This document shows positions 2,893-28,490 of a DNA stretch of 64,000 nt, in pieces. The position numbers and the translations under genes are program-made. How positions within the stretch are numbered: position 1 is the stretch's first letter; each line of letters begins with the position of its first letter. This stretch comes from Bacilli bacterium (GTDB taxonomy: Bacteria; Bacillota_I; Bacilli_A; RF39; JBKDZI01): assembly GCA_047971215.1 (NCBI GenBank), contig JBKDZI010000025.1, positions 8,704-72,703 on the forward strand, written 5' to 3'. The notes beneath the pieces were generated by a model that was not told where the DNA came from, did not search any database, and saw only the letters and a list, made by a program, of their open reading frames with translations.

Positions 2893-2944
2893 AAATTAAT
2901 ACTTGTATTTTTGTGAGATAATGTTATAATTGTATTAAATATTT

Positions 2945-2985
2945 GCTTTCTTAGCTCATTTGGTAGAGCAATTGACTCTTAATCA
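2945..2985 (+). pseudogene. Truncated tRNA-Lys 5'-half copy (acceptor 5' strand through anticodon loop, no 3' half)
   Basis: GCTTTCTTAGCTCATTTGGTAGAGCAATTGACTCTTAATCA matches the 5' 40 nt of the intact tRNA-Lys at 3306, including the spliced CTCTTAATC junction. No T-arm or acceptor 3' strand follows. Confidence 0.6.
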
Positions 2986-3120
2986 TAAGGTCTAAACTCT
3001 ACTATACTTAAACAAACCCTTATAGATAAAGGTTTTAGAGTTAATGAACATAAGTTAAACACTCTATCGTACGTAGAATGTACGTAGAAAAAGAAAAAAA
3101 GCACTAAAAGTGCAATAAAT

Positions 3121-3162
3121 GGGACGTTAGCTCAGTTGGTAGAGCAACTGACTCTTAATCGG
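3121..3162 (+). pseudogene. Truncated tRNA-Lys 5'-half copy
   Basis: GGGACGTTAGCTCAGTTGGTAGAGCAACTGACTCTTAATCGG is near-identical to the 5' exon of the downstream tRNA-Lys plus the first 4 nt of exon 2. It has no 3' half. Confidence 0.65.
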
Positions 3163-3305
3163 CGAGTGTCATTAAGCAAATAAGGTGTAACCCCTTTACT
3201 GATAAGGGTTTATAATATATAGGAATTATACTAATACATGAAATATCGGACTTTTATCGGACAACCGATTAAAAAACATGATTTTTATGTTATAATTCTA
3301 TTCAT

Positions 3306-3647
3306 GGACTGTTAGCTCAGTTGGTAGAGCAACTGACTCTTGGTAATCACACTGGGAGTGTATCATAGTAATATGATAATGAAAATCGAGCAAAAACGGT
3401 AAACGCTGAAATGCTAATACCGTGCTAACTTAATAGATAACGATAAGGCTATTAAGCAGTGTAACGCATAGGAACTGAATAAATATAATGTTCCCACGAA
3501 TGCTTGACAACCTACTTTATAATAAAGGGTTGATAATGTATGCTGAACTATATAGAACAACAATATATAGATGTATCGGATAAAAAGCCAATACGATAAC
3601 AAAATGTAATCAGTGGGTCTGGAGTTCGAGCCTCCAACAGTCCACCA
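3306..3647 (+). tRNA. tRNA-Lys(CUU) interrupted in the anticodon loop by an intron of about 266 nt. The exons are 3306..3340 and 3607..3647, with CCA encoded.
   Basis: The 5' exon is GGACTGT TA GCTC AGTTGGTA GAGC A ACTGA CTCT. The 3' exon is TAA TCAGT GGGTC TGGAG TTCGAGC CTCCA ACAGTCC A CCA. Acceptor, D, anticodon (ACTGA/TCAGT) and T stems all pair. The spliced anticodon loop is CTCTTAA. Confidence 0.8.
3341..3606 (+). ncRNA. Putative group I intron in tRNA-Lys
   Basis: The 5' exon ends in U, which can pair with G in a P1 helix (exon ACUCU with intron GGAGU at intron nt 15-19). The intron ends in G before exon 2. The size of about 266 nt is typical of bacterial tRNA group I introns. No long internal ORF is present; the 62-aa track ORF on the minus strand is spurious. 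Confidence 0.55.
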
Positions 3648-3725
3648 TGAAGTAATTTAAGGGCTACTAGCAATAGTACTCTTTTTTAGTGTTATAATTA
3701 TATTGCTCCGACATTAGTAAATGTC

Positions 3726-4724
3726 TTGAGTGATATTCTAGCATGCGATAATACAATGTCTATCAATTTGTTGAACACATATAAAAATAAAACTGAAGAA
3801 TTATCAATTTTTTTAAATGATTTAAATCGTCAAGGCATAAAATATAATAATTTATTTGTTGATAGTGAACATACTGAAGAAATATTATCATTAATTGAAA
3901 AATTAGTATATGATGGGTTTGTACAAAAATCATACGAAGAAATTTTTAGATGTGATTGTGGCAAAGTTGATATATTAAAACAAGGCATCAATCCTAGTGT
4001 AAGTAAATTGTATTATGAAAAGAATGATGAATATTATTGTAAAGATTGTGGTACTGAATGCAAATCTTTTAAAGAGGAAGTATTAACCCTAGAATTGCCT
4101 GAAGACATTGATGACTCTTTAATAATAGTACCAACCTTCTTAAAAAATGATGCTAATCATTTAAGTAAAACTTTTAAGGGAAGCAAATTACTTGTTTCGA
4201 AACAAAGAGAAACTGGTCATCAAATAACTATTAACGATAAAACCTTTAATATAGATGTCGATTTTATTTGGACTAACTATTTTAGATTATTTGATAATGA
4301 ACAAATTATTATGCTTGCAAGCAATCATCAAACTTATCAAATGTATTTACTGAATTATTTAAACAGAATCATTGGTGGCAATGAAATTTGTTTTGTTGCT
4401 AATCCCTACATGAACCAATCTAAAACTATAAATCCATTGACTGAATACGAAAAAACAACTGACGATATTTACAAAAAATTATTTATTCTATACAACTTGA
4501 AATGGAGAAACAAAAATTGTGATTGGTCTAGAAGTGTAATAGATTACTTGAGTAATACAAGTATTACAAGAAGAAATAATTTGTATAAGGTTATCCAAGA
4601 TTGCGGAAAAAAATTTAACGAAAGCAAAATGCAAACTGATTTATATTTAGAAAGTATTTTACACAAAGGAATAAATATGCAAACAAATATTCCTGAGTCA
4701 AAAAAACTAGTAAAAAGATTATAA
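3726..4724 (+). CDS. Hypothetical protein with paired CxxC zinc-ribbon motifs
   Basis: The frame is 332 aa with CDCGK...CKDCGTEC. No synthetase HIGH or KMSKS motifs are present. It is the first gene of the island downstream of the tRNA. Confidence 0.4.
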   Translation: MSDILACDNTMSINLLNTYKNKTEELSIFLNDLNRQGIKYNNLFVDSEHTEEILSLIEKLVYDGFVQKSYEEIFRCDCGKVDILKQGINPSVSKLYYEKNDEYYCKDCGTECKSFKEEVLTLELPEDIDDSLIIVPTFLKNDANHLSKTFKGSKLLVSKQRETGHQITINDKTFNIDVDFIWTNYFRLFDNEQIIMLASNHQTYQMYLLNYLNRIIGGNEICFVANPYMNQSKTINPLTEYEKTTDDIYKKLFILYNLKWRNKNCDWSRSVIDYLSNTSITRRNNLYKVIQDCGKKFNESKMQTDLYLESILHKGINMQTNIPESKKLVKRL

Positions 4725-4756
4725 TAATAGTAAAATAAATATATGGAGATGATATA

Positions 4757-5443
4757 ATGTATAGTATATTTTTTAGTAAAATAGAACTTGGTATGGATTT
4801 AGTAATAGAACCATTAAAAAAAATCGTTAAACTTAATTCTAAAATTGCAATTTTTCCTTGGGCTTTTCCTATTGAAATAACTTCCAAAGAATTTGAAACT
4901 GATTATTTTCCAGTCAAAGGAAAAAGATACAATAAATATTTAAATGAATTAAAGAAAATTGGAATAGAAGAACAAAATGTGATTGTATGTAATCCTTATA
5001 AAGATACAAGAAAAGAATTACAAGAAATTATTAAAACTAGTGATATTTTATTACTACCTGGTGGTAATCCTGAAATGTTTTTTAAAAAAATATTACACGA
5101 CACAGAATTAATATATGATTTTAAACATTATAAAGGAATTGTAATTGGTGAAAGTGCTGGAACTGAGTTACAATTAAAAAGATATTTTATTACAAGTAAA
5201 AATAATTACTATGAATATTTTGCTGTTTATGATGGATTTGGACTAATAGACAATGAATTTTATATAGATGTCCATACACAAGATAATGAAGAATACCTTA
5301 ATGAATTGAATAAGTATTCAAAGAAAACAAAATCAAATATTTATGCAATATTTGATGATGGTGCTATAATCTATAATAGAAAAACAAATGATTTAGAACA
5401 ATTTGGTAACATTAAAATTGTAGAGCCTAACGAAGAAAGTTAG
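4757..5443 (+). CDS. Peptidase S51 family protein (dipeptidase E / cyanophycinase-like)
   Basis: The LLLPGGNPEMF motif and the GESAGTELQL serine-nucleophile motif (GxSAG) are present. Confidence 0.55.
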   Translation: MYSIFFSKIELGMDLVIEPLKKIVKLNSKIAIFPWAFPIEITSKEFETDYFPVKGKRYNKYLNELKKIGIEEQNVIVCNPYKDTRKELQEIIKTSDILLLPGGNPEMFFKKILHDTELIYDFKHYKGIVIGESAGTELQLKRYFITSKNNYYEYFAVYDGFGLIDNEFYIDVHTQDNEEYLNELNKYSKKTKSNIYAIFDDGAIIYNRKTNDLEQFGNIKIVEPNEES

Positions 5444-5737
5444 GTTTTTCTATGTGTGTGCCTATTAGTCCACTATACTGCTTTTGTTTATTCTAAATAA
5501 TTAGATTTGAAATGATACCCCCTAGTGATTATTTATCATTCAGTCGGACAGTAAATCGGACAAATATTTAATAAAGAGTATTAAAAGATAATAAGTCATG
5601 TTATTGCTATAATAGACAATCGCTAGTATATACTAGTATTTATCACTTTATAATAAACCATAATAACTAACTTTTAAAACTCTTAATCGCTAGGTCGTGT
5701 GTTCTAGTCACACAGGGAGCACCATTAAGAATTTAAG

Positions 5738-5768
5738 ATGGTATCTTTGGATATCATCTTTTTTAATG
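5738..5768 (+). terminator. Rho-independent terminator
   Basis: The hairpin agatggtatc-tttg-gatatcatct is followed by TTTTTT. Confidence 0.5.
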
Positions 5769-5865
5769 ATATAATAGTGATAGAAAACTTCTGTTTATAT
5801 AGTTAAGTTTGTGAGGTGTAAATATAACTAATGATAAAAAGTATATAGATTATATTAATGAAAAA

Positions 5866-8800
5866 ATGGTTTTATTGAATGAAAGCGTTAGGTTAAGTGG
5901 GAAACAAAGTTTATTTGATATAAATATTATAAGCGAAAACTTCTACAGAGATTTATTAGGAATAATTGAAGATGATGAACTTGCGAATGGGAATTTCTTT
6001 GAACAGAATAATGCTGTTTTTGACTTATATAGTGATAAAACAAGGAAATGTTATCAAGTAACTTCAAGAAATGATAAAGCTAAAATTGATGACACTATCG
6101 ACAGTTTTAATAATACGGAGAAGAAACTTTATAATAATTATGATTTACATTTTATAATTATTGGTAAAAAAGTTAATAATCAAAAAATTGTTAAATCTAT
6201 AAATGGTACTCTATTTGATACAAGAAAAATAATAGATTCAGATGATATTTTAACTAAAATTAAAAATTGCAGTATAGAAAAGAAAAAAGAAATATTTGAT
6301 TTTTATAGAAAATATTTTGATAATCAATTAATTAATTTAGATATAAATTTTTTTAGAAACATTTTAGAAGAAAATATTGAAAATTTAGGAGAACGATATA
6401 ATAAACTTATTAATATTTTGACCCCTTTAAATGATTCATTATCTACCTACTTTGTTAATTCAAATGACAAATATAAGTGGCTTAATTCATCAAAATTTTC
6501 TATTGAAAAACTTATTTTAAAAGGTGTTTCGCTAAATACATATAATGACGACTTTATAATTTTTAATAAGGAAGTTAGAAATAATGTCTTTTCAAATATT
6601 ATTATATATTTAAATAATGTTATTAAAAAAACGGATGTATTATTAGAAAGTTTAGATTCGAAAGATGATAAAAATTATTATACAATCAATGAATTAAATA
6701 AACAAAAAGATATTTTATTAGGTATTATTAATAACTTTAGTGTTGCCAATAAGAGTTTGTTTGTATTAAAAGGAAAAGCTGGTATGGGTAAAACACATAC
6801 TGTTACTTATTTTGTAAAAAATGAAATCGAAGAATACAATAAATACTCTTTACTAATTTTAGGACAACATATTAATCAAAGAAGTTCAATAGATTCACAA
6901 ATTATAAATAATTTGAATCTAAATATGACTTTTGATGAGTTGCTTTTTGCTTTGAATGAATATGGATATAAAAAGGATTGTACAGCATCTATAGTTATTG
7001 ACGGAATAAATGAAGGATTGGAATCTTATAATTGGAGAAACTATATTAATGGAATTGTTCAAAAGATTTCCAGATATAACTTTGTAAAAGTATTAATTAG
7101 CATACGTAGTGAATATGTTGATAGCTGTTTGCCAGATGAATTGTTCAATAATGATTTAGTATATACAAAAGAGCATCAAGGATTTAAAGAAAATTTTACT
7201 ACTATAATGACTCAAGTATTTGATTGTTACGACTTAACAATGCCTGTTTTTCCAATCATTGACCATAATTTTTCTAACCCGTTATTTGTTTTTACATTTT
7301 GCAAAATGGTAAAAAAACTAAATAAACCACTAATTATAAAAAAGTATGATGATTTCACTCAGGTCTATATTGATTATATTAATCTCGTTTCAACAAAATT
7401 ATCAGCTTTATTTCATTACGAAAAAGACGATGAAATATTGCAAAACATAATCAAAACATTCATAAACTTTATTTTAGAAAATAAAACTAATTATATTTAT
7501 AAAAAGGATTTACTAAAAATTATAACTGATTCTACTAATGGATATGGTATTGTTGCGAATGATTACCTAATTGCAATGAAAAGTGAAGGATTGATTTACA
7601 AAGATTATGCTTATGTTAAAAATGGAGAAAAAGACGATGCTTATGCTGATGTGATAAGATTTTCATTTGAACGATACGAAAAAATACTGACTGCAACATA
7701 TTTGTTAGATAAGTACAATGATGTTGAAACATTGGAAAGTGACATCAATAACGAAAATAATATTGGGGAATATTTTTCTACATCTAGATATAATATAGAT
7801 TTTGGTTTAATACAGGAGCTTTTTATTATTATACAAAATAGATTTAAAACGGAGATATATGATATTATTGATTTTTCTGGTACGGAGGGTTATTTTCAAG
7901 CCAGATTATCTTAAATTTATATTGAAAGTTTGATATGGAGAAAAGAAATATACGATGGTAAGGAACTAGAAAATTTTAGAACTTTTATTAATGATTTTGT
8001 TGCAAAAGATTTAGAAATATTTGATATATTTATAAAATTATTGATTAAAACATCTTTTATTAAAAATCATCCATTAAATTCTGATTTTTTACATAACTGG
8101 CTTTTTAATAAAAAATTAGGAGAACGAGATTATATTTGGACGATAACTATAAATAACCTATATTTGTATGACAACGAAATATTTGATATGTTGTATGAAT
8201 ATTGTATGACACAGGGAAATAAAAACCTTGATGATGAAACTATCTTGCTATTTTCACAATTATTAGGTTGGTTTTTTACATCTTCTAACAGAAAAATGAG
8301 AGACAAGTTTACAAAATGTCTCGTATCTATACTAGAAAACAAAATACATTTAATGACTAATCTCATCGATATTTTTTTGGAAGTTGATGATATGTATGTG
8401 CTTGAAAGAATATTAGCAGGGTGCTATGGAGAGATATTAAGAAGTGACATATTGGAGCCTAGCAATGTATTTTCCGACTATATTTATAATAGTTTTTTCA
8501 AAGATAAAGTATTAAATCCTAATATCCTAATTCGCCATTATTGTAAATCAATCATTGAATTTGCTACTAGAAATTTTACTATGAATTTTGATATCAATGA
8601 AATATATAATCATAAAAAAAATGAATGGTACAAACAGAAAGAAATTCCTACCTCGGAAGAAATAAAAGAAAAATATGTTTATGACTATAGAGACGAAAAA
8701 ATAAAAAGATATTATTTTTCTTCAAATACAATAGTAAGCTCAATGACTACGGAACATAGTGACCTTGGAATGTATGGAGATTTTGGTAGATATATTTTTG

Positions 8801-9966
8801 AAAGATTAGTAGACCAATGGAAACATCATTTTAGAAAGCAGCAAATATTAGCAAATATCGTAATTAAAAGAGTATTTGATATGGGATATGATGTTGAAAT
8901 GCACGGAATTTATGACTCCACCACTCACAATTATGATAAATATTCTCACAATCCTGAAAGAATCGGTAAAAAATATCAATGGCTTGCTACATACGAATTA
9001 ATTGGAAAATTATGTGATAATTTTAGTATGATAGAATATGTATATAGCGATACTCCAATTGATTTAGAAAAAAATAAGTACCTAGATAGACATTATAATG
9101 AAACAAAGAGTTTAAATAAAATTAATTACGTTATTGTAAATAAATACGATATGAATGATTCATCAATTATTAATATTGATCCATCATTATTTATTACTGT
9201 ACAAGAAAGAAAAGCAATAAAAATTGAATCTAGCAATAGCGATTGAGTTAACCAAGATATAGACGTAAAAGAAGTGATATTCAAAACTATAGATGGTGTA
9301 GAATATATATCACTCGGGAATGTTGAAGAGTGGGTTAATGACGAACATATTGCTGACTGGCACCACCCTTTTAAAAAACGTGTTGCTATAAAATCAATGT
9401 TATTCTTAACTGCAGATGCCAAAAAATTTATGAAAAAAGATTCGAGTATGCTTTGCGATTTAGGATGGAGTTCTCACCTCAATACATATATATTAGAACT
9501 CAGTAAATCAAATTATTATTATGAACAAATTGTGCCTGATGAATATTGTTCTAAGAAGGATGATGACATTGCTTTCTCATTTAGTGAATATTGTTGGGAA
9601 AATGGTGGATACGATGGTTCAATCGATGAAAGTATTAATATCTATTTCCCTTGTTTCTTCTTAATTAAACTCTTAAATTTGAAACAGAAAAATGACTATC
9701 GTTGGTATGACGAAAACGATAACCTTATATGTTTTGATACTTCATTAACAAATGGAATCAACAATTTGTTAATTGAGAAAAATATATTTTTAAAATTTAT
9801 TGAGGATAATGGCTTTTCTTTTGTTTGGGGAATGTATTACGAAAAAGACACAAATAATTGGAGAACTAGCTGGAGAAAAAATGTTACAATAGATAAACTA
9901 GATAAACATGGAAAAATTAGAGAAGTTGTTTTGGAAAAAGAAAGTTATAAATTAAGACAATTTTAA
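5866..9966 (+). pseudogene. NACHT/STAND-like P-loop NTPase, a single 1367-codon reading frame interrupted by two in-frame stop codons (TAA 7912..7914, TGA 9244..9246)
   Basis: The track ORFs 5866..7914, 7930..9246 and 9274..9966 are all in the same frame. Only one stop codon separates each pair, and the latter two lack ATG starts (TTG and GTG are the first codons). Walker A is LKGKAGMGKTHT and Walker B is SIVIDGINEG (hhhhDGxxE, NACHT-like). A roughly 300-aa N-terminal domain and roughly 750 aa of C-terminal helical region are typical of STAND sensors. Confidence 0.5.
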
Positions 9967-10152
9967 AAGCAACTAAATAGTTACAAGATAATAAACAGCT
10001 GATATTGATTTTTATTTTCTATTACATACATTAGCAATTTATTTATCAAGTGTAATAGCCATATGAATTAAAATTAACGTAAAAGATTATATAAACAAGA
10101 AGAATCAAAAATTTTCAATTTATCCATAGAGATATTTAATATTATTATTTTG

Positions 10153-10183
10153 TTGTTTATTATATTTAAAATTGTGATATAAT
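10153..10183 (+). promoter_or_regulatory. Putative sigma-A promoter with extended -10 (TGaTATAAT) upstream of xfp
   Basis: TTGTTT (-35-like) is followed by a 19-nt spacer and TGATATAAT about 25 nt upstream of the ATG. The RBS is AAGGGG. Confidence 0.35.
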
Positions 10184-10207
10184 TTATACAGAATAAGGGG
10201 AATAAAA

Positions 10208-13666: not shown

Positions 13667-14435
13667 AATCTAAACATTCATTAAATAGATCACTATTATT
13701 ACTTCTATGAGAAACAATAAGTATAGTCTTATCTTTAAATTCTTTAAATATAAATTTAAGAATTTTTCTTTCTAATTTTATGTCAATTTCACTCAAAGCT
13801 TCATCAATTATTAGAATATCAAAATTTTTATAAATACTTCTAGCAAGTATTATTCTTTGTTTTTCACCACCTGATAAATTAAATCCATTTTCTTCTATTA
13901 ACATATTTAAACCCAAATTAGATTTGTCATAAATTGTATTAATGTCAAATTTTTCACAAATATTAATAACTTTTTCTAAATCTTTTTCTTCATCAATAGA
14001 AATATTATTATAAATTGTATCATTAAACAAAAGCTCATTTTGTGAAACATATCTAATATTTGATCTAATACAATTAATACTATAATTATTTAAATCTATA
14101 TCATCTATAAATATTTTGTTATTATCAACTTCATAAAATTTGCACAATAATTTTAAAAATGTACTTTTGCCACTTCCAGAATTACCCTTGATTAAAACTT
14201 TAGACCCTGATTTAATATTTAAATTTAGATTTTTTAAAATTGGATTGTGAATATGGGAAAAATTTAAATTGTTAACCTTTATATTTCCTATTAGATTTTT
14301 ATTTATTTTATTTTCATCACTCATAGATTCATTTTTTATAGAATATACTTCATTAATTCTTTTAAATGAAATATCATATTTTTTATAAATTAAATTAAAA
14401 TCTATTATATGTTTAATCGGATCAATTAAATGCAT
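13644..14435 (-). CDS. ABC transporter ATP-binding domain, the C-terminal part of a split bacteriocin-processing exporter
   Basis: Walker A is GNSGSGKST, the ABC signature is LSGGEKQR, and Walker B is ILIIDEA. It overlaps the upstream TMD ORF by 10 nt in a different frame. Confidence 0.7.
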   Translation of the reverse strand: MHLIDPIKHIIDFNLIYKKYDISFKRINEVYSIKNESMSDENKINKNLIGNIKVNNLNFSHIHNPILKNLNLNIKSGSKVLIKGNSGSGKSTFLKLLCKFYEVDNNKIFIDDIDLNNYSINCIRSNIRYVSQNELLFNDTIYNNISIDEEKDLEKVINICEKFDINTIYDKSNLGLNMLIEENGFNLSGGEKQRIILARSIYKNFDILIIDEALSEIDIKLERKILKFIFKEFKDKTILIVSHRSNNSDLFNECLDFGDYNDK

Positions 14436-18746: not shown

Positions 18747-18812
18747 TGGAGGGCCTAGCCGGATTTGAACCAGCGATCAGGGAGTTGCAGTTTTAGCCTC
18801 TGACCTTCATTA
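18747..18812 (-). pseudogene. Degenerate tRNA-Cys-like 3' fragment (anticodon loop, T-arm, acceptor 3' strand, CCA)
   Basis: The reverse complement ...GGCTAAAACTGCAACTCCCTGATCGCTGGTTCAAATCCGGCTAGGCCCTCCA aligns with tRNA-Cys at 18988..19062 (CTGCAAC loop, TTCAAATCC, GGCCCTCCA). It lacks a pairing anticodon stem and a 5' acceptor strand. Confidence 0.5.
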
Positions 18813-18987
18813 TCCGTCTTTGCCTTTGTTTACTTGATATTAGTTAATTTAAAGTTTCATTGAACATCATTAAATTGTATTAAAACTCATTGGTTTGTGA
18901 CATATTTAGTGACACTAATGCTTTTCTAAGTATCTAATTTATTAAATTATCGATACAGTTTTGTATCGACATATTATAATCAAAAAT

Positions 18988-19062
18988 TGGAGGGCCCGAT
19001 AGGATTTGAACCTACGCGTCGAAGAGTTGCAGTCTTCTGCCTTACCACTTGGCTACGGACCC
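18988..19062 (-). tRNA. tRNA-Cys(GCA)
   Basis: The reverse complement is GGGTCCG TA GCCAAGTGGTAAGGC A GAAGA CTGCAAC TCTTC GACGC GTAGG TTCAAAT CCTAT CGGGCCC T CCA. All four stems pair. Confidence 0.9.
19026..19055. repeat. 30-bp direct repeat (tRNA-Cys D-arm/anticodon region), left copy; the partner is at 28443..28472 (29/30 identical)
   Basis: GTTGCAGTCTTCTGCCTTACCACTTGGCTA versus GTTGCAGTCTTGTGCCTTACCACTTGGCTA. The pair brackets a roughly 9.4-kb block that carries integrase and recombinase genes. Confidence 0.7.
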
Positions 19063-19249
19063 ATTTTATATATTATATGTGATAAGATAGATTTCTTTCA
19101 CTTAATATATTATAACTTTTTTCCTAAATTTAGTCAATTGATATGGCTAAATTTCTACAATTTCCAATACATTCAATGTTTATCAATTTTTTATATATTA
19201 ATTCAGTATAGAAAATTATTTCTTCAACTAAAGTGCTAGACCATTTATA

Positions 19250-19800
19250 GTCAAGCCTAACAAGCGGTTTCTTGTAGCCATGAAGTCTTGTAATAATACT
19301 AATAATAACATAGACAATAAGAATTACTATTTTTTAATAGAAACAGACAATTCAAATAGAGATTACATTAAAACCACTGGTTTTAATGAGAAAAACCGGG
19401 CAGAGAGACCATTCCGGTTTTGAAAAGAACTGGTTATTAAGTTAGTTAATGTATTATCTAAAAACTTTTAAGTGCTTTCAGCCAATGTGGTGGTTGTTTG
19501 AGATGCTTGGAATACCTTTAAATAGGAGTTCAAAAGTTTTTAGAGAGGACAGTGATTAACTGATATTTTCGATACTTGGTCAAAACGTGTGCCAACATGC
19601 TTATTTATAGTTTTGATGGGTATTTTGCTACACGGTGAAATAAACTCCACAAAGGGAGTTTAAATGGGCAAATAGGGCGGAAATTGAGAAGATTTGTCAC
19701 ACATTTTTCAAATTCCATACTTATTATCTTTAAATTGAAAAGATACGAGTTTAATCGTATCCAGGTCATCAGTTATTATAGTAATTATACTTACATTTCA
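19250..19800. ncRNA. Candidate large structured non-coding RNA (GC-enriched, ORF-free region inside the element)
   Basis: There is no ORF longer than 60 codons on either strand across roughly 550 nt. GC content is clearly higher than in surrounding DNA. Several local hairpins are visible (for example AAAACCGGG...CCGGTTTT). Confidence 0.3.
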
Positions 19801-20184
19801 TTATCGATTTATATTAGGGTTAGTTTCATATAGAATTAACTCTTTATTTTTAGCATAAAATGCCCCAATAGCATTTCTTATGCTATCAAATAAGTCATCT
19901 TCAACATGAATTGGTTCTAATCCTTGCCCTGCTGCTTTGATTTTTTGTAAGACTTGTTTTTGTTCTTCTTTAGAAATAGCATCACTATTACATAAATTAC
20001 TATTTAAGAAGTCACAAAAGTATTCAAAGTCACTATCCCAATTTATATTTCCGTTATCTTGTGCTTCCCAAGCCAATTTTTCAATTTGTCTTAGTAACTC
20101 GCCTTGTAAATTATCTGCTTGTCCGCTTTTGGGTATAAGATTGTTCCATATATATTTGCATTCTTTAGCATATTTATATGCCAT
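19801..20184 (-). CDS. Hypothetical protein (element cargo)
   Basis: The frame is 127 aa from MAYKYAKE, with a GGAG RBS. The track ORF starts within the RBS. Confidence 0.35.
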   Translation of the reverse strand: MAYKYAKECKYIWNNLIPKSGQADNLQGELLRQIEKLAWEAQDNGNINWDSDFEYFCDFLNSNLCNSDAISKEEQKQVLQKIKAAGQGLEPIHVEDDLFDSIRNAIGAFYAKNKELILYETNPNINR

Positions 20185-20239
20185 AATATCACTCTCCATT
20201 TCTATTTTAACATATTTTTATAATTATTAATTCTATTAT

Positions 20240-20659
20240 TTAGGACAATTCATTAGGTCTAATACTCTCTATTGAAATCAAATCTTTATCATCAAAGATA
20301 AGTTTAAATACTTCTGGTGCATTAAATGGGTTCTCAAAAATCGTTTTATTTTTAAAATCTCTCGGTAATTCATCATAAGAATTAACTCCATGCGATCTTT
20401 CTCCAAAATCTTCATCAATTAAAATATCTAAATCATTTTTATTAGCAATATATTTAGCTGTTGAAATTGTTCTAACATAATTACTTGAAATAACACAATC
20501 AATATTATTAAACTCTTGTAATTCACTTAATATTTTAGCTCTTTCTTCTCCTAAAACCAATAATATATCTTTTTCATTTCTTAATTGAGGTGAATCATTT
20601 TAATTTAGTTTTTAATCTTTAAAGGTTTAGAATGTCTAATAAAATATATTGTAGTCATA
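20240..20659 (-). pseudogene. Histidine phosphatase (phosphoglycerate mutase-like) family gene disrupted by a frameshift/stop
   Basis: The N-terminal piece MTTIYFIRHSKP (RHG-type motif) terminates after 17 codons. The remaining 106 aa continue in another frame. Confidence 0.5.
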
Positions 20660-20673
20660 AATTAATCGACACC

Positions 20674-22543
20674 TCACATTCTACGCTTATTACTTTGTTC
20701 TTCATAAAAATTAGAATCATTATCTGCCATTTGATTTTGCTGTTCTAATTCCATTCTTTTTTGAACTTCTAGTAAATCAAGTTTAGCAGTCTTTAATAGT
20801 TCGATTTCTTGATTAACAACTTTAGATGGTAAAACCTTTTGAGAAGTATCAGATATAATTTTGCTTGTTTCTTGCTGTTGAAGTGGAAGTAATCTTACTT
20901 GTGATGATATTACATCAAAGCATTTATCATGCTCAAAAAAGGGGATATCTATATATAAATCATTATCACTTTCTCTTACTTTCGCCCCAGATTTTTTAGC
21001 TTCTTTAATTATAGCCTTTTGTATTTCACAAGGAATATTATTCTTAGAAAAAGAAAAATATCCACCATTAGTATCGTGTCCTGCACAGGCTCCAGTAGAA
21101 GTTAATCCTCTTTGAGCAAAACTACTCAATAGGTTTTCAAGAGAAGGTAAATCCTCTGAAAATTCTCGTATTGCTAGTTGTCTTTCATTTTCATCTAATT
21201 TACTTATATCTACATTTGGCTTTCCCTTTGCATAAGAATTTTTCTCATACCTACTTGAAAAGTCAAGCCTGTCTGTAATTTGAGAAGCATCAATTTGAGA
21301 AACAATTTTTATCTCATCTTTAGTTGCAACAATATAATTATTCTCGGTAGTTTGACAGATAAATTCACCATTTTTTGTTTTATGGATATTTTCAAAGCCA
21401 ATATCTGAATGAACTGTTTGTTCTTTATCGCCCCATTGAAAAGTTATATCATGCAATTTCGGGGCAAAACTAGGATCGGAGAGTGGAATTGAATAATTTT
21501 CAATGTGTTCAATAGTGCTTGGAAGTGTCAGTTTTTCTAGAGTAGGTGTAAACATAAGTGCAAATTGTTCTAATTGTAAAACTCCACTAGGAACTCTTAA
21601 ACTTTTTATTCCTCTGCACTTTTTCTTTTTGCATATCAATTTGACATATAGCATTTGTGTTTACCATTCCTAAATCTATACTAACAGCTTTACCGCTTGT
21701 GGATTTAATAATCGTTTGGGAATTCTGAAATGATATTTCAGCAAAATCTCCCCTACGAATTTGAAAAGTATATGGAATACCATTATGCGTCTTTTTAATG
21801 GTTAAAATACTATTTTCCTGTGCTTCAAAAACTCCATTTGATCCATCATATTTGCTATTACCTCTTTTACTACTGCCTGAGCGAGCTTCCAGTGATGTTT
21901 GAAATGGCACTTTAAAACTATCTGGCAATTCTACATATTCTAAACCATTTAGATTACGAAAAGCATTATTTCCAGATTTTTCGACTCCTTCATGTAATAT
22001 TAAAGTCTTTATATTCTTACATTGATTTATAAAATTAGATGGTAATTCTTTTATTGAACCAGCTACTTCAACACGAATTAAATTTGTATCGTGCGATGCA
22101 TACATATTACCTAAAGATTTGATATTATTTCCAAGTACGAGATTTTGAACTTCTGGATACATACCAGTTCCTAAATATTCAATAGTGACAGGTAAATTAT
22201 ATTGTGTTCTTGTTGAGTCAAGAGAATTATTTCCTAAAGTTTTAATACCATTAGGTAATGTTACTTTTTTTAGATTAGAGAAAGCCGCTTCGAAAGTAAA
22301 ATATCCATCTGGAATTTTTGTTATACTTCCATCTCCAAAATTTATTTCAGTTGCTCCAGACATACCCGCCAAAGCTTTGTTAGCAATCATATTAAGGTTC
22401 GGATCAAGCTGCTTAACTTCTTTTGGAATATTATAAACTTGTAATCCTTTAGGAACATCAACTAACATTCCAGTCAATTGATCTATAATATATCCATTAA
22501 TATCTTTTAATTGTTGTTTTGGTTTTCTATCAAATATTCCCAT
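20674..22543 (-). pseudogene. BspA-type leucine-rich-repeat surface-like protein, split into two overlapping ORFs (21587..22543 and 20674..21654)
   Basis: The upstream ORF carries LRR_5-like repeats (NIKSLGNxxF...LxxVxLPxSIxxIG pattern). The two ORFs overlap by 68 nt in different frames, consistent with a frameshift in a T-rich stretch. Confidence 0.4.
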
Positions 22544-22717
22544 TTTTTCACCTACTAATTCCTTTAAATTTGTGCATAATCATTTGTTGCTAGATAATCT
22601 ATTATTAGTATATCATTATTTTGGTTTTTTTCTCCCTATTTAACAAGCATTTTACTAAAAATTATGTAAAACGTTTGTAGTAAATTTATATATTTAAATA
22701 GTTATTGAGGAGTTGCT

Positions 22718-23383
22718 ATGAACGAACTATATGAGGCTGTAGAAAAATGTTTTTCTAATGATGTTGTTTTGGCCGATATTGAGAAGACTTTGAGAAACGA
22801 GTTTCTTGCTGCTAAAGCAAGATACAAACGAGTCCAAGATTATCCAGTAATTGCTAGTAATTATATGGATCATATCACTTCTAAGACTGATTTATCCAAA
22901 CTAAACAAAAGAAAAGATGTTTTAGCTTTTAGGATTGTATTTGAGAATGGCGAAGAAATTTATCTTGATAAGAATGTTGTTGATAATTGGTTTTTTGATG
23001 GAGTAAATGATTCAGAAGATGCTGATGATACTATTTATGATGCTTCTGGAGTTGACATTATAAGAAAGGGTTTAGTTTTTAAGGAGGGCTTTTTGAAGTT
23101 GAAATTATCTATTTTAAGTCATTTATATACAGTTGATGGTATTGAAAGTGGACAGATTGATCCTAATGCAATTGATAGATTAACTGAAAAGATGGATATA
23201 ACTCATATTCTTCTTAAACTAGATAAAGATTCTCCGAGTGAACTTTCATTATTAGTCCCTTATGTTGATAGAACTGATTGCCCACCTATTAGTCTCACTA
23301 TTCCAGCTGTTTTCGAGAACAAGTCCCAGTTTATTACTTATGATGATGATTACTTGTATATTCAGTGGTTAATTTTAAAATAA
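22718..23383 (+). CDS. Hypothetical protein (element cargo)
   Basis: This 221-aa ORF has no recognisable motif. Confidence 0.3.
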   Translation: MNELYEAVEKCFSNDVVLADIEKTLRNEFLAAKARYKRVQDYPVIASNYMDHITSKTDLSKLNKRKDVLAFRIVFENGEEIYLDKNVVDNWFFDGVNDSEDADDTIYDASGVDIIRKGLVFKEGFLKLKLSILSHLYTVDGIESGQIDPNAIDRLTEKMDITHILLKLDKDSPSELSLLVPYVDRTDCPPISLTIPAVFENKSQFITYDDDYLYIQWLILK

Positions 23384-23675
23384 GTTGAAAGGAAGCTGTA
23401 ATTATTGCTTAATCATGGTTAAACATAGATAGAGGTAATTTAATGCCTAATCAAGTGGTTACTACTGGTAATTGAGTTAGATATAAGACTCATTGATAAA
23501 GGGTTCAATTATTGCTCTTATTTTTTTACCTAAGGGTGTCAAATTAAACAATTGATTAAATAGACATTGGTAATTAGAGTCAATACTTGGTGATTAAGGT
23601 GTTAAAAGTGCTTCATTAGTCTAATTATTAAAAAAGATGATTGATTAGACACTTAGGAGAAAGGATGGATTTTAT

Positions 23676-24278
23676 ATGTTTGTAGAGACTGGCACTGAAT
23701 ACGGATATGCGAGAGTATCCACTAATAGGCAAGATGGGGCTTATGAGATGACTGCTTTACTAAATGCAGGAGTCAAGCAGTCAAATATTTTCTTTGAAAA
23801 AGAAAGTGGTAGTAATGAATCTAGAGAAAAGTTTAATGAATTACTTGGAATAGTTAAAGCTGGTGACACGATTCGTTCTACTGAGATTACTCGTATTGCT
23901 AGAAATATGCGCAACCTTATAGATATTGTGGAGCTTACAAATAAATTAAAACTTAGGCTTATTATAGGTAACTTAGTTGTTGATTGTAGAACCGATGAAT
24001 TAGATCCTATTACTGAAGTTACTTTATTAGTAATTGGTATGTTTGGGATGTTCGATTTAAAGATGAAGAAGCATCAAATTATGCTTGGGCTTGAGAATGC
24101 TGTTGCTTCTGGCAATAAATTAGGTAGAAAGTTTAAAACTAAAGATGATATTGATGAGAAGTTTTATAAATACTACTCGCAATACAAAAATAATCAAATA
24201 AATCTAACTGAATTATCTAAACTCTCTGGAGTATGCAGACAGACTTGTTATAATTTGATTGATCTTATTGAAAGTTAA
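23676..24278 (+). CDS. Serine recombinase (resolvase/invertase family)
   Basis: The N-terminal catalytic motif YGYARVSTNRQD contains the active-site serine. The length of about 200 aa, with a C-terminal HTH, fits the family. Confidence 0.75.
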   Translation: MFVETGTEYGYARVSTNRQDGAYEMTALLNAGVKQSNIFFEKESGSNESREKFNELLGIVKAGDTIRSTEITRIARNMRNLIDIVELTNKLKLRLIIGNLVVDCRTDELDPITEVTLLVIGMFGMFDLKMKKHQIMLGLENAVASGNKLGRKFKTKDDIDEKFYKYYSQYKNNQINLTELSKLSGVCRQTCYNLIDLIES

Positions 24279-24324
24279 AAGAAGTTACTCATTTGTGAGT
24301 AGCTTCTTTTTTCTTTTATAATAT

Positions 24325-24984
24325 TTAATCTACATCATAATATGTTGCATTATCATATAGGATTCTTCTAAGAGTGAAGGTATCGTCATCGATTTTGGGG
24401 AACTTTTCTTTAATCATATTAATAATTTTATCCTTATCTCTAGTATATTTACTAAATTCTTCATCATAAAAGCTAGCGATTTCTTCTTTATTCGCCCAAA
24501 GCCAAGAATTATCGTTATTCATTTGTTTTATTGTTCTATTTACTGAATCTTTTGTATGACATTTAATATAACGACCATTAACTTTTTTAAAATTATATTT
24601 TCTAAAAAAATAACCTATTCGATTTGAACTTATATCAGTATCAAATAACTCTTTTATTTTTTTTGCTGCTTCTTTATGTGTAGTTATATTATTTTTCTTA
24701 AAAACTTTTCCTATTTCATATTCATACTCTAGGAGCTTAGGAACATTTGTAGGTTTATGCTTTCTTTTCCATATTTTTTTGTTATATTTCGAAACATAGT
24801 ATGATATAGATCTCCTACTGGCACCTGTTTTGTTTGTTATATAAGTTATATCTTTCCCTTCAGAATATAAAAGAAGCACATTACACATTTTTTCTAATCT
24901 TTCATTTTGAGTTCCCCTAAGTGTTTCTTCTAATGACTTTTTTTGATATTCAGTTAATTTAAAATTTCTTCTTGCTTTTCTCAT
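24325..24984 (-). CDS. Hypothetical DNA-binding protein (N-terminal HTH, transposase-like)
   Basis: The frame is 219 aa. The N-terminal region LTEYQKKSLEETLRG...ITYITNKTGASRRSISYYVSKY looks like an HTH. Confidence 0.3.
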   Translation of the reverse strand: MRKARRNFKLTEYQKKSLEETLRGTQNERLEKMCNVLLLYSEGKDITYITNKTGASRRSISYYVSKYNKKIWKRKHKPTNVPKLLEYEYEIGKVFKKNNITTHKEAAKKIKELFDTDISSNRIGYFFRKYNFKKVNGRYIKCHTKDSVNRTIKQMNNDNSWLWANKEEIASFYDEEFSKYTRDKDKIINMIKEKFPKIDDDTFTLRRILYDNATYYDVD

Positions 24985-25156
24985 ATTTTTTCCTCTAACA
25001 CCAATTATACTTCAAAAACGGATAGCGAGCAATATAATCCGTTTTTTTATGAACTGATTTTCCTCGCTACGGTTTTAACCCTTTATATATAAAGTTCTAC
25101 AAAGGGGTAAAAATATTAAAAAGTTTTTATTTTACTGTGAAAGGAGAAAAACGAAC

Positions 25157-25276
25157 ATGGCAAATCAAATTAACGAACACAGTGGTTGTGGGTCCGGGGC
25201 TCATTATGCCCATTTTGCTCGCTCATGTTTTAGTAGGCATAAGAAATGCCAAACAAAGTTGTTGATGCTCAACTAA
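25157..25276 (+). CDS. Small Cys/His-rich peptide (39 aa), candidate sORF upstream of the RecA-like gene
   Basis: The peptide is MANQINEHSGCGSGAHYAHFARSCFSRHKKCQTKLLMLN. An AAAGGAGA RBS lies 9 nt upstream. Confidence 0.25.
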   Translation: MANQINEHSGCGSGAHYAHFARSCFSRHKKCQTKLLMLN

Positions 25277-25306
25277 AAAGTATCGTTACAGTAAGAGGAG
25301 AATTAA

Positions 25307-26371
25307 ATGAAAAGTAATAAGAAAACTACAGGTGGAACTAGCTTAGCTGATTTGGCTAATTCTCTACCTAACTATTTTAGTGATACTACAATAGTGAAAT
25401 CAGGAATATATTCATTGGATTATTTACTTAAAGGGGGATTACAACTTGGATCATTCATTCAGTTTGTAGCGGAGTCTGGAATTGGAAAATCAACTATCGC
25501 ACTACAAGTTGCTAGTAATCTATGTGAGCAAGGTCATAAGGTTTTATATCTCGATAGCGAGGGTTCAGTAACTAATAAAACGTTGGAATCTACTGGAGTT
25601 TCTAAATATCTTAATAATGGGTTTTATTATGTAAGAGAATCCACTTTTGATAAAGTAGAAAAAAAATTAGATAGATTTATATCAACAAATGAAATATCAG
25701 TTATTATGATTGATTCAATAGCCAATCTAATCAATGAGGGTTTTACTAATTTAAATGATGGTATTTCCATCACAAATAACAATACCAATAATATTAGTGG
25801 CCCATTGGTTAAGTTTATCAATAAATATAAATCAGTAGCTACAAGTTGCAATATCTGTTTCGTGTTAGTAAATCAGTATAGAAATACAATAAACATGAAG
25901 ATAGGAACCCAATTAAAAGAATATGGTTCAAAGAATGTCAGATATGCTTCAGATGTCATTATAAAAATAAACGGGATTAAGTCATTTGGATCAGCAAGAG
26001 ACTTTAAAAATTTAACTAATAGTGCTGATGCAGGGATTGCATTGGAATTAGAAATTGTTAAGAGTAATAAGTCGAGACCTGGTACTATTATGCCTGCTTA
26101 TCTAATTTATGGTAAGGGAATAGACAACATGTGGAATTGGGTTTATGAACTTAAAAAGGCGGATGTCATTAAGCAGGCTGGTAAATATTTCTCTTTAGAT
26201 TATGTGGGGAACCAAATAAAGGAAGATGGTATGCCTAATTTCGTTAGAGCACTAGAAAGCACAGAGTTTAGTGTTGATGACTTTACTAACCTAATGCCAG
26301 TTGGTGATGATTTTGATGGTGAGTTTACTCTTGAATTTTCAACTTCGGCAGATGATGGTGGTGAATTATGA
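25307..26371 (+). CDS. RecA-family recombinase/ATPase (divergent, mobile-element encoded)
   Basis: Walker A is AESGIGKSTIALQ. An L2-like region NQYRNTINMKIGTQLKEYGSKNVRYASDVII parallels RecA NQIRMKIGVMFG...ALKFYASVRLDI. The C-terminal tail is acidic (DDFDGEFTLEFSTSADDGGEL). Confidence 0.7.
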   Translation: MKSNKKTTGGTSLADLANSLPNYFSDTTIVKSGIYSLDYLLKGGLQLGSFIQFVAESGIGKSTIALQVASNLCEQGHKVLYLDSEGSVTNKTLESTGVSKYLNNGFYYVRESTFDKVEKKLDRFISTNEISVIMIDSIANLINEGFTNLNDGISITNNNTNNISGPLVKFINKYKSVATSCNICFVLVNQYRNTINMKIGTQLKEYGSKNVRYASDVIIKINGIKSFGSARDFKNLTNSADAGIALELEIVKSNKSRPGTIMPAYLIYGKGIDNMWNWVYELKKADVIKQAGKYFSLDYVGNQIKEDGMPNFVRALESTEFSVDDFTNLMPVGDDFDGEFTLEFSTSADDGGEL

Positions 26372-27093
26372 GCTATGGTTATTTTAAACCTCAATATGGA
26401 GGTAATTTACAAAAGGGCTCTTTAGAGGGACAATATAAATATCTAAAAAGGATTCCAAACATTAGAGTTTACTATGATCATTATGGAAAAGGTAGTCCTC
26501 ACTTTTCAAATCTGATGAAGAAGTTAAGTGAGGGTGATTCCTTATATGTAACCAATGTAAGAGATTTAGGTAAAACTAATAATGGTGTTTTTACAAACTT
26601 CTTAACACTAAAGTCATTAAAGGTTAATTTATTTATCAATGACAAAAAGATTGATATAGATGGACTCTTTAATGAAATTGATACGATGAAAAAGTTTAAT
26701 TATGCGCATACCAAAGGACAACTCCGAGATATCGACATAGTTGATGCTACCATGCTCAAATATATATATAGTTTTATAGAGAATAAAGGAAAGAAAGTGA
26801 ATTTTGAAAATGTAAATATAGCTGATTTGTTATTAGCACTTGGAGAACAACTTAAAAGTTCTCAAAAACAAAAAGATAGTGCTTCTATTGTTATAAGCAA
26901 GGAACTACTATCTTCAAAGGAAGTATGTGAGTTATATCCATGCTTTACCGATGATAATGCCTTAAGAAAGGCTACAGATAAGGGATTGCCTTATCTGAAA
27001 ACTGGCAGACATAGATTTTATAGAAGAATTGATATTGATGGATGGCTTGATAAACAAATTATTATTGAGGGAAATCAGTTGATGTTTGATTGA
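26368..27093 (+). CDS. Protein with a C-terminal excisionase-type HTH domain (Xis-like)
   Basis: The C-terminal segment LYPCFTDDNALRKATDKGLPYLKTGRHRFYRRIDIDGWL matches the Xis/MerR-type HTH_17 pattern (LPxxKxGRxxxFxxxDIDxWL). It sits immediately upstream of the integrase. Confidence 0.45.
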   Translation: MSYGYFKPQYGGNLQKGSLEGQYKYLKRIPNIRVYYDHYGKGSPHFSNLMKKLSEGDSLYVTNVRDLGKTNNGVFTNFLTLKSLKVNLFINDKKIDIDGLFNEIDTMKKFNYAHTKGQLRDIDIVDATMLKYIYSFIENKGKKVNFENVNIADLLLALGEQLKSSQKQKDSASIVISKELLSSKEVCELYPCFTDDNALRKATDKGLPYLKTGRHRFYRRIDIDGWLDKQIIIEGNQLMFD

Positions 27094-27128
27094 ATATACG
27101 TCACAAATAGAAAAGAAAGGAAGATTTT

Positions 27129-28329
27129 ATGATAAATATTCTAGATACAAAGTATATAAAAGACAAAGGAAACGGAACCTACAGAATTAGGTTTCGTATT
27201 CCTGATGCTTTTGGTAAGAAAAACGATTGGTTCACTAGGCAAATCAAAAATAGCACCATAGAAGATGCTATTCAATTAAGAGATGCTGCTCTAAAAGAAC
27301 TTGCAGAAAAAGGTCAGATTGATAGTACTATGAGAGTAAAGGCTTGTGCTGAACTGTGGATGAATCAAGTAGCTGAAAATATAAATGCAGGTTCTACTAT
27401 TGATGACAAGAAATCTAAACTAACAAATCATATTCTACCATATATGGGTGAAGATAGAATGTGTGATGTTAATCGGGAACGTATTCAAGGGTTAATTAAT
27501 ACTCTTAAGAAGAAAGATTCTCAAAGACATGATAGTAATGGTAAAACAATAAAGTTAAGCTCTACCACTATCAAAAATATTTATAGCATTGTTCGTGCTA
27601 TGTTTGCATGGGCGGCTGATGAAGATATTAACATTATTGAAGTTACACCTTGTAGAAAGATTTATTTACCAGAAGTAGATGAGTATGATAAAGAGGTTTT
27701 TGATACAGAAGAAATAGATAGATTACTTGATGCTATTATTAAGCTTCCTATTCAAAGACAGTGTTTATATTTAATTCCACTGTTTTGTGGTCTTCGTAGA
27801 GGTGAAGTTGCAGGTCTAAGATGGAAAGATATTGATTTTGAACATCAAAAGATTCATATTAGAAAGTCATTATCTATAACAAAATCTAAAGGTACGGAAC
27901 TTAAGAAACCCAAGAGCAAAAAAGACCGAACAACTGGAATGAACGATTGGGTGAAAGATAGTCTTTTGCAGCTCAAGGAGGAGCAGCGGAAATTAAAAAC
28001 ATCAATGGGTAAGTTCTATAAAGATAGTGAAATGGTTTTTACTGATGAATATGGTGGATATTTAACTCCAAATGCTATTATGGAGAAGATTTATAAAGAA
28101 ACATAATTTAAAACATGTAGTTTATCACGGTTTAAGAGCAAGCTATGCGTCTTATCTATATAATCGCGGGATACCAATTAAAGAAATATCCGAATCGCTA
28201 GGTCATAGTAAGACTAGAACAACAGATAAATATTATTTAATAACTGATAGTAATACGAATACCCGTATTTCAGAAGTTACAAATGATTTTAAGAGACCTA
28301 GAACAATAGTGACAACTACCTCTGATTAG
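27129..28329 (+). pseudogene. Tyrosine integrase disrupted by a frameshift (ORFs 27129..28106 and 28072..28329)
   Basis: The first ORF carries the N-terminal SAM-like domain and catalytic Arg (LRRGEVAGLRWKDID). The second ORF carries HGLRASYASYL and LGHSKTRTTDKYY (H-x-x-R and catalytic Tyr). The frame switch lies near ATTATGGAGAAGA, with no homopolymer involved. Confidence 0.8.
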
Positions 28330-28442
28330 AGCAAGGCTTGGGACACTTTTTGTGACATTTTTCATAATAAAAGAGTTTGTTATTTCACAAACCCTTATAA
28401 ACACTAGCTTAAATTGACGCTATCAACAAACATGTCCAATTT

Positions 28443-28490
28443 GTTGCAGTCTTGTGCCTTACCACTTGGCTATAGACTCATTACACCGAT
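28443..28490 (-). pseudogene. tRNA-Cys 5'-half fragment (right att-like repeat of the element)
   Basis: The reverse complement TGAGTCTATAGCCAAGTGGTAAGGCACAAGACTGCAAC matches the D-arm/anticodon part of tRNA-Cys. The acceptor 5' strand diverges. The sequence after the anticodon loop is not tRNA. Confidence 0.65.

Follow-up and report, generated by a model that had tools for sequence, protein, structure and literature searches.

Within a 64,000-nucleotide (nt) stretch of a Bacilli contig (JBKDZI010000025.1, termed here the window), the region between hpf and a SMEK-domain gene contains three copies of the 5' part of a lysine transfer RNA (tRNA) gene. This region very probably records a nested and partly decayed series of integrations by mobile elements that do not rebuild the tRNA gene into which they insert and that bring a replacement tRNA gene; the replacement that is still intact is split by a group I intron at the site of crossover. 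The resident gene is termed here gene A, its orphaned halves A5' and A3', the two elements E1 and E2, and the tRNA-Lys genes that they carried B and C, respectively. The features, all on the + strand, are as follows, where attL and attR denote the left and right attachment sites of an integrated element, and ORF an open reading frame:

2922..2930, +: extended -10 promoter of gene A, TGTTATAAT, as read from the sequence
2945..2984, +: A5', orphan 5' half of resident tRNA-Lys(CUU) gene A, acceptor strand GCTTTCT
2985..3120, +: E1 left arm, with a hairpin at about 3014-3035, a tandem repeat of GTACGTAGAA and a decayed promoter
3121..3160, +: B5', orphan 5' half of the intronless tRNA-Lys gene B of E1, acceptor strand GGGACGT
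3161..3305, +: E2 left arm, with TCGGAC at 3246 and 3257 and promoter TGTTATAAT at 3288-3296
3192-3208 (about 3189-3211), +: terminator-like hairpin of the E2 left arm, with a T-rich tail
3306..3340, +: exon 1 of the E2-borne tRNA-Lys(CUU) gene C, ending at U35
3341..3606, +: group I intron of 266 nt without an ORF, recognized by phage-intron homology, profile and covariation
3607..3647, +: second exon of gene C, U36 through CCA end, TAATCAGTGGGTCTGGAGTTCGAGCCTCCAACAGTCCACCA
3726-4724, +: E2 cargo ORF of 332 amino acids, with Cys-rich motifs
4757-5443, +: E2 cargo ORF of 228 amino acids, S51-peptidase-like
5444..5679, +: E2 right arm, with TCGGAC at 5544 and 5556
5680..5724, +: A3', orphan 3' half of gene A (attR), found by a scan for T arms followed by CCA

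The tRNA-Lys 5' part occurs as three direct copies (2943-2980, 3119-3156 and 3304-3341) that are 79-100% identical between position 8 and the anticodon loop and that lie 176 and 185 nt apart, in agreement with an earlier note on this DNA, which had described three 5' halves at intervals of roughly 180 nt. The first seven bases, that is, the acceptor strands, differ (GCTTTCT in copy 1, GGGACGT in copy 2 and GGACTGT in copy 3), and positions 8-38 are identical to those of tRNA-Lys genes from other organisms. The anticodon is CUU. Copies 1 and 2 follow the anticodon loop up to CTCTTAATC and diverge beyond it; ARAGORN makes no call at either, and the Rfam tRNA model scores them at 25.1 and 19.1 bits, below its 29-bit threshold. 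The TGnTATAAT motif of the gene A promoter recurs ahead of copy 3, at 3288-3296.

The earlier note had also stated that a 3' half follows the third copy alone; that copy is itself interrupted by the 266-nt intron, and an orphan 3' half, A3', had been overlooked at 5680-5724. A3' opens with the exact nine bases that close copies 1 and 2 (CTCTTAATC, 5680-5688), followed by GCT, AGGTC, the T arm (GTGTG TTCTAGT CACAC), the acceptor 3' strand AGGGAGC, and an A and CCA that form the ACCA end; no 5' partner adjoins it. Its AGGGAGC pairs, two G.U pairs included, with the GCTTTCT of copy 1, and when A5' is joined to 5689-5724 ARAGORN recognizes a tRNA-Lys(ctt) of 76 nt, while it calls no tRNA in the controls in which copy 2 or copy 3 is joined to A3'. 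Because A5' and A3' thus constitute one complete tRNA, the intervening 2985-5679 is DNA inserted in the anticodon loop of gene A, and A5', which terminates in the core (2976-2984), forms the attL of the first insertion. The common core of insertion is the 9-bp CTCTTAATC at 2976-2984, 3152-3160 and 5680-5688. (One further exact GGTAGAGCA, a D-arm motif, lies on the + strand at 37556-37564, probably by chance.)

A local tandem duplication of a promoter and tRNA 5' part, followed by decay and involving no mobile elements, could produce both the regular 176- and 185-nt spacing and the promoter-like sequence common to units 1 and 3. Such an origin is nonetheless most improbable, given that positions 1-7 are wholly different next to positions 8-38 that are those of other organisms' tRNA-Lys, that the 3' half with which copy 1 pairs lies 2.7 kb off, and that the layout recurs beside integrases in other genomes. 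Scarcely more credible is an artefact of assembly across the 38-nt repeat: the window does come from a metagenome-assembled genome, and the Logan contig that covers the locus (L081) breaks inside copy 2, but that contig, an independent assembly, is identical at every base over hpf, copy 1 and the beginning of copy 2, the layout is self-consistent in its complementary halves and matching arms, and it recurs in unrelated assemblies. A split or trans-spliced tRNA, in which three alternative 5' halves would share one 3' half, was considered and rejected, the acceptor strands of copies 1 and 2 failing to pair with ACAGTCC.

Copy 3 departs from the tRNA after ...GACTCT and resumes 266 nt downstream. 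Unspliced, gene C is missed both by ARAGORN and by the Rfam gathering scan; with 3341-3606 removed, ARAGORN reads it as tRNA-Lys(ctt). A sensitive blastn search of 2900-3660 against phage genomes aligns about 220 nt of the intron, at 70-76% identity, with introns that split terminase, helicase and polymerase genes near HNH or LAGLIDADG ORFs. Examples are (i) the terminase large subunit of Staphylococcus and crAss-like phages, (ii) a RecD-like helicase of a Bacillus phage and (iii) a DNA polymerase region with a LAGLIDADG ORF; some of the phage records carry names such as 'mobile intron protein' or 'intron-encoded endonuclease'. With 12 phage introns alone as its basis, an nhmmer profile finds window positions 3381-3622 with E = 2e-52. 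For an alignment of 13 sequences, RNAalifold predicts P3, P4, P5, P6, a hairpin between P7 and P3', P8, P9 and P9.1, with compensatory changes in 40 of the 49 pairs; the P7 pseudoknot is paired in all 13 sequences, five of which show an A-U to G-C switch. The helices lie as follows:

3337-3358: P1
3361-3378: P2
3386-3391/3502-3507: P3
3396-3460: P4-P6
3466-3470/3539-3543: P7
3471-3494: extra hairpin
3508-3532: P8
3548-3570: P9
3573-3594: P9.1
3606: last base, omega G (G3606)

A model of the full pre-tRNA was also written by hand and its pairs counted over six sequences, with the same count after sliding the pairing partners serving as the control: 98.9% of cells are paired, as opposed to at most 47% with slid partners, and compensatory changes affect 28 of 90 pairs, as opposed to at most 3. 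All six tRNA-Lys introns have the U35.G wobble in P1, the inner part of which covaries, and end in a G directly ahead of TAATCAG; the invariant wobble and terminal G place the intron at 3341-3606, between U35 and U36. Judged by its homology and covariation, then, 3341-3606 is a group I intron, and it divides the core into CTCT and TAATC. Both its 35/36 position and the hairpin located between P7 and P3' would fit an assignment to subgroup IA, since tRNA introns between positions 35 and 36 are reported to belong mostly to that subgroup (PMC13011429, in the main text of which 'Lys' does not appear). Gene C is the sole intact copy at the locus, and its transcript should self-splice to a normal tRNA-Lys(CUU).

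A metagenome scan that combined the conserved intron end with the tRNA-Lys 3' exon yielded three more such genes (L094, L096 and L100), and look-ups of integrase homologues added the intron-bearing tRNA-Lys genes of L102/L108, L103/L109, L105, L111 and L113. The intron of L096, on a 1.3-kb metagenome contig, occupies the same tRNA-Lys site as that of the window, contains a long homing-endonuclease-like ORF and is followed by a 3' exon that is nearly the window's. Such an ORF speaks for an ability of the intron to move by homing.

The boundaries of E2 are indicated by a repeat. TCGGAC occurs four times in the 64-kb window, each time within one of the two E2 arms, with one pair at +85/+96 from the core at 3152 and the other at -136/-124, ahead of the core at 5680. 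Because this geometry equals that of the related elements described below, 3161-5679 is taken to be one element of the same family with both arms intact. E2 is thus a 2.5-kb integrase-less element, whose cargo ORFs match no Pfam or PHROG family except for a weak S51 peptidase match and have no homologue in related elements. The earlier note had considered the integrated elements to be lost and had proposed 3660-10200 as their residual cargo. A 2.5-kb derivative with both arms is, however, still present at 3161-5679, and the insert comprises 2985-5679, so that the SMEK-domain NTPase (apparently what had been termed a NACHT-like NTPase) and its neighbours, at 5866-9966, fall outside it.

Of E1 there remain the left arm and B5', which ends in the core at 3152-3160, the attL of the second insertion. 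The two copies of GTACGTAGAA in this arm (3069-3078 and 3080-3089) are the only sites in the window at which GTACGTAG is found; they lie at +85/+96 from the core, the offset seen in related elements, and lack a partner on the right side. The architecture of the arm matches that of the relatives in alignment. ACGTCCC, the strand that would pair with B5', is absent from the + strand of the window.

Several smaller features of the arms may be recorded here. A hairpin of varying sequence lies about 25-35 nt past the core in the left arms of the window (3014-3035 and 3189-3211) and of the relatives L100, L108, L109 and L111; it may halt read-through from the promoter of the orphaned host tRNA. Between copies 1 and 2, at 3101-3113 on the minus strand, there is a terminator-like hairpin GCACTTTTAGTGC followed by a T run, and this coincides on the + strand with the apparent decayed promoter of gene B. 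It was also considered, and rejected, that the spacers hold remnants of the intron: local alignment of the copy 2 spacer with the intron gives z = 4.6, yet the phage-intron profile finds nothing in either spacer, and the similarity is attributable to AT-rich composition and a common hairpin.

The same layout occurs next to integrases elsewhere. Eight metagenome elements with seven different integrases, all targeting tRNA-Lys(CUU), were compared, and each encodes a tyrosine integrase. Six of them (L100, L108, L109, L105, L111 and L113) carry an intron-bearing tRNA-Lys and one, L112, an intronless tRNA-Lys(ctt) (13745-14011, minus strand) with anticodon stem CTCGA/TCGAT, as opposed to ACTGA/TCAGT in the target. 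In these non-rebuilding relatives the tRNA-Lys lies just inside attL, and the orphaned host half is visible in five of the seven. In L100, for example, an orphan intronless tRNA-Lys 5' part lies about 150 nt upstream of the intron-bearing tRNA, next to the 3' end of which is a tyrosine integrase (Pfam 5e-26; PHROG integrase 1e-56), followed by an HTH_17 excisionase-like gene and Cro/CI-type regulators. Both ends are visible in L108 (6.9 kb), L109 (9.2 kb) and L111 (7.9 kb), in each of which the host gene is split into complementary halves (GGGCTGT/ACAGCCC in L108 and L111; GTCTCCT/AGGGGAC in L109) and the intron-bearing tRNA-Lys has an acceptor stem either different from or identical to that of the host gene; the common core is 24 bp in L108 and L109. 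That integrase-bearing relatives split tRNA-Lys(CUU) at the same core upholds the suggestion of the earlier note that the breakpoints mark the anticodon-loop crossover of tyrosine integrases.

These elements also show paired arm repeats, at +85/+96 on the left and -136/-124 on the right: TGTGCAA in L108, and [G]TATGCAA in L109 and L111. All 6-mers repeated in both arms of an element fall into such pairs, save for a single common 6-mer of L108 that is unrelated to them, and the left and right repeats are identical within every one of the four elements compared (E2, L108, L109 and L111). The paired repeats are putative arm-type integrase sites, by analogy both with lambda-like systems and with those described in PMC10865867. 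At 6.9-9.2 kb, and encoding an integrase, an excisionase-like protein, helix-turn-helix (HTH) regulators and defence-like cargo, with no phage structural genes seen, the relatives look from their gene content like integrative islands or satellites.

Some further observations concern the relatives alone. The defence-like cargo includes Mrr_cat/NA-iREase1 in L109, Fic in L111, BrxC_BrxD, TerB_N and a helicase in L112, and a methyltransferase, SWI2_SNF2 and SocA_Panacea in L144. The tRNA-Lys 3' half of L112 is almost identical to A3' of the window. Among viral contigs, two DNA patterns found no match and an integrase search gave relatives of at most 32% identity; contig P0145 has no tRNA in the roughly 150 nt between its integrase and the contig end. 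Intron identity and integrase identity show a weak, non-significant correlation (Spearman 0.30, p = 0.28).

The eighth relative bears on a different reading of the locus, namely that elements of the ordinary, rebuilding kind integrated repeatedly and were lost, leaving 5' halves as attachment-site scars and 3660-10200 as cargo. L106/L107 (two near-identical loci that represent one element) rebuild the host gene and carry no tRNA of their own; their integrase is 56% identical and uses the anticodon-loop site of the family, with a block of identity running from the anticodon stem to the 3' end. The existence of this related integrase, like the position of the breakpoints in the anticodon loop, is what such scars would lead one to expect. 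Rebuilding integration, however, duplicates the 3' part of the gene, as seen in L106, rather than the 5' part. At the locus of the window, the canonical direct repeat of a 3' part downstream of an intact hybrid gene is replaced by repeats of 5' parts, and the sole 3' fragment pairs with copy 1. The three copies have three different acceptor strands, only that of copy 1 matching the orphan 3' half, and the insert bounded by copy 1 and A3' ends at 5679 rather than at 10200. Ordinary scars are for these reasons distinctly unlikely. What stands of the serial integration envisaged in the earlier note is that more than one integration took place, copy 1 and A3' being halves of one gene; copies 2 and 3 are not scars of that one host gene, since their different acceptor strands instead identify them as tRNA genes brought by elements.

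From the split halves, the matching arms, the structure and homology of the intron, and the recurrence of the layout in integrase-bearing relatives, the following order of events, including a deletion, is inferred. Originally, a single tRNA-Lys(CUU) gene A would have stood between hpf and the SMEK-domain gene. E1 would have recombined at CTCTTAATC in its anticodon loop and, because the attachment site of E1 would have only the short core in common with the tRNA, gene A would not have been rebuilt; E1 would have supplied gene B, which had no intron and lay some 140 nt in from the left end of that element. Gene B, its core intact, would then have been hit by E2, an element of the same family that supplied the intron-bearing gene C. 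Subsequently the B 3' half, the E1 body and the E1 right arm would have been lost, probably through recombination between directly repeated cores or 3' halves, with E2 likewise ending up without integrase and excisionase. The resulting order would be A5', arm, B5', arm, gene C, two ORFs, arm and A3', with the right arm of E2 joined to A3'. Under this scheme 5' halves pile up because the target gene is left unrepaired and every element delivers a complete gene of its own.

A number of results weigh against this history. With the B 3' half and the E1 right arm absent, an additional deletion has to be assumed for two insertions in succession. Compared with one another, the spacers that follow copies 1 and 2 show no significant sequence similarity, their architecture alone being common. 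Family scans and tblastn find no integrase or excisionase within 2985-5679 (the L100 integrase matches the window at 27.5-28.2 kb only), so that the copy in the window would be a non-autonomous or decayed derivative. No empty site was found among 80 hpf loci of species-representative genomes, where the nearest hpf is 51% identical and none has tRNA-Lys downstream; the nearest hpf of any is 53% identical, and an exact-protein look-up returned a single identical contig, of 1 kb. Finally, Rfam Intron_gpI (RF00028) has no match to the intron at E up to 10; this negative result says little, inasmuch as the Rfam 15 model at permissive thresholds also misses the phage homologues (loci L082-L085).

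The extra deletion can be avoided if a composite that already held B5' as a relic of an earlier host inserted once into gene A, the nesting having taken place elsewhere; such a single event would join the right arm of E2 to A3' just as observed, with no local deletion required. The arm beside A5' (GTACGTAGAA) and the arm beside A3' (TCGGAC), though, do not match one another, while the two arms match in all four elements compared. A single integrase would thus have had to act on mismatched arms, which makes this alternative rather unlikely next to nested integration at the locus itself.

Non-rebuilding integration with a replacement tRNA is already known, and what is new here is a replacement gene split by an intron at the crossover site. 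In the tRNA-dependent lysogeny of actinobacteriophages (Fionnbharth, LeBron, Gaia and others; Guerrero-Bustamante and Hatfull, mBio 2024, PMC10865867), a tyrosine integrase uses an attB (the bacterial attachment site) in the anticodon-loop region of a tRNA gene, often tRNA-Lys. The core of 8-17 bp is too short for the tRNA to be rebuilt, and survival depends on a tRNA of matching isotype that the phage encodes; the core is flanked by paired arm-type sites, and closely related integrases may or may not rebuild the gene. The mechanism was shown experimentally in actinobacteriophages, outside of which one possible Lactobacillus prophage was named (PMC10865867). The system described here is similar in that (i) the core in the window is short and lies in the anticodon loop, (ii) no functional tRNA is rebuilt at attL or attR, (iii) a tRNA that matches in isotype and anticodon is carried (gene C once spliced, and its counterparts in L100, L108, L109, L111, L113 and L105), (iv) putative arm-site pairs flank the core and (v) the 56%-identical integrase of L106/L107 rebuilds. 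It differs in that the elements of the window and their relatives are 2.5-9 kb in size, without phage structural genes seen, and reside in uncultured, low-GC, gut-type Bacilli; in that the replacement gene lies directly inside attL; in that a group I intron splits the core in E2 and in six of the seven non-rebuilding relatives; and in that the window contains nested events and an integrase-less derivative.

The intron may likewise be set beside known ones. With the group I introns of tRNA anticodon loops it shares the U.G wobble at the 5' splice site, the terminal G, the 35/36 position and the tendency to be missed by standard tRNA finders; unlike them, it resides in a tRNA-Lys(CUU) gene of Bacilli, on an integrative element, and has as its nearest sequence relatives introns in phage protein genes. 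With the endonuclease-associated group I introns of phages (Staphylococcus, Bacillus, Clostridioides and crAss-like) it shares the homologous core of about 220 nt (70-76% identity) and the covarying P3-P9 and, unlike them, it lacks an ORF and lies in a tRNA gene. An anticodon-loop class of tRNA-targeting integrases that rebuild the gene was reportedly distinguished by Williams in 2002. The crossover in the anticodon loop is alike, whereas in the window identity is confined to 9 bp, the gene is left unrepaired, and it is 5' halves that accumulate instead of 3' fragments. In the literature searched, no paper was found in which the intron of a tRNA gene borne by an element is connected with an attachment site.

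The coincidence of intron and core raises the question of function. Because 266 bp split the core in the DNA, gene C should no longer be an integrase substrate. Tentatively, and with considerable doubt, the intron may have been kept because the splitting of the core blocks integration; on this hypothesis a functional copy of the target gene could ride on the element some 200 bp from attP (the element's attachment site) without the element recombining with itself. In keeping with the hypothesis, it was gene B, intronless and with its stem unchanged, that took an insertion, while gene C with its intron escaped; and, in a sample that is small and in which host genes are intronless by ascertainment, the intron is present in six of seven non-rebuilding relatives, the lone intronless case (L112) having an altered anticodon stem. 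A shield is evidently not a necessity, however, as mycobacteriophages and a second element in the window, at tRNA-Cys, carry intronless cognate tRNAs, and simple hitch-hiking of a homing intron (compare L096) would be an alternative explanation. If the hypothesis is correct, the integrated copy would offer no landing site to further elements, a host allele that gained the intron would be resistant to the whole family, and the intron would constitute a DNA-level shield for a tRNA gene that is invisible at the RNA level.

More generally, an intron predicted to self-splice and a site-specific integrase here act on the same few bases of an anticodon loop, and the intron-bearing gene travels on the element; this overlap makes it testable whether the intron protects the gene from integration, and the nested array provides a natural record of an intronless replacement gene hit by a further element. 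Integration that destroys one tRNA gene and replaces it is now seen in small elements of uncultured gut-type Bacilli, at two tRNA genes within a single 64-kb window. In practical terms, the intact tRNA-Lys(CUU) gene of this locus escapes ARAGORN and Rfam, so that such genomes may be scored as being without this tRNA, and introns of this family that Rfam does not detect will be missed by standard annotation.

Beyond A3', at 5866-9966, lie a SMEK_N-domain protein of 682 amino acids, with a weak PhoH-like match, and two ORFs without a family; as these genes lie past A3', they do not belong to the insert bounded by the attachment sites. The second element, at tRNA-Cys(GCA), spans window positions 18747-28479 on the minus strand and comprises:

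28479-28444, minus: orphan tRNA-Cys 5' half
27129-28106, minus: tyrosine integrase ORF, to which similarity continues in another frame up to 28236, so that it may be frameshifted
within 18747-28479, minus: HTH_17, AAA_25/RecA-like and resolvase genes
19062-18988, minus: intact intronless tRNA-Cys
18790-18747, minus: orphan tRNA-Cys 3' half

When the two tRNA-Cys orphans are joined, ARAGORN recognizes only a poor tRNA. The arm geometry is that of E2: the motif TGTCAC occurs once beyond the left core, at a distance of 87 nt, and twice ahead of the right core, at 124 and 112 nt.

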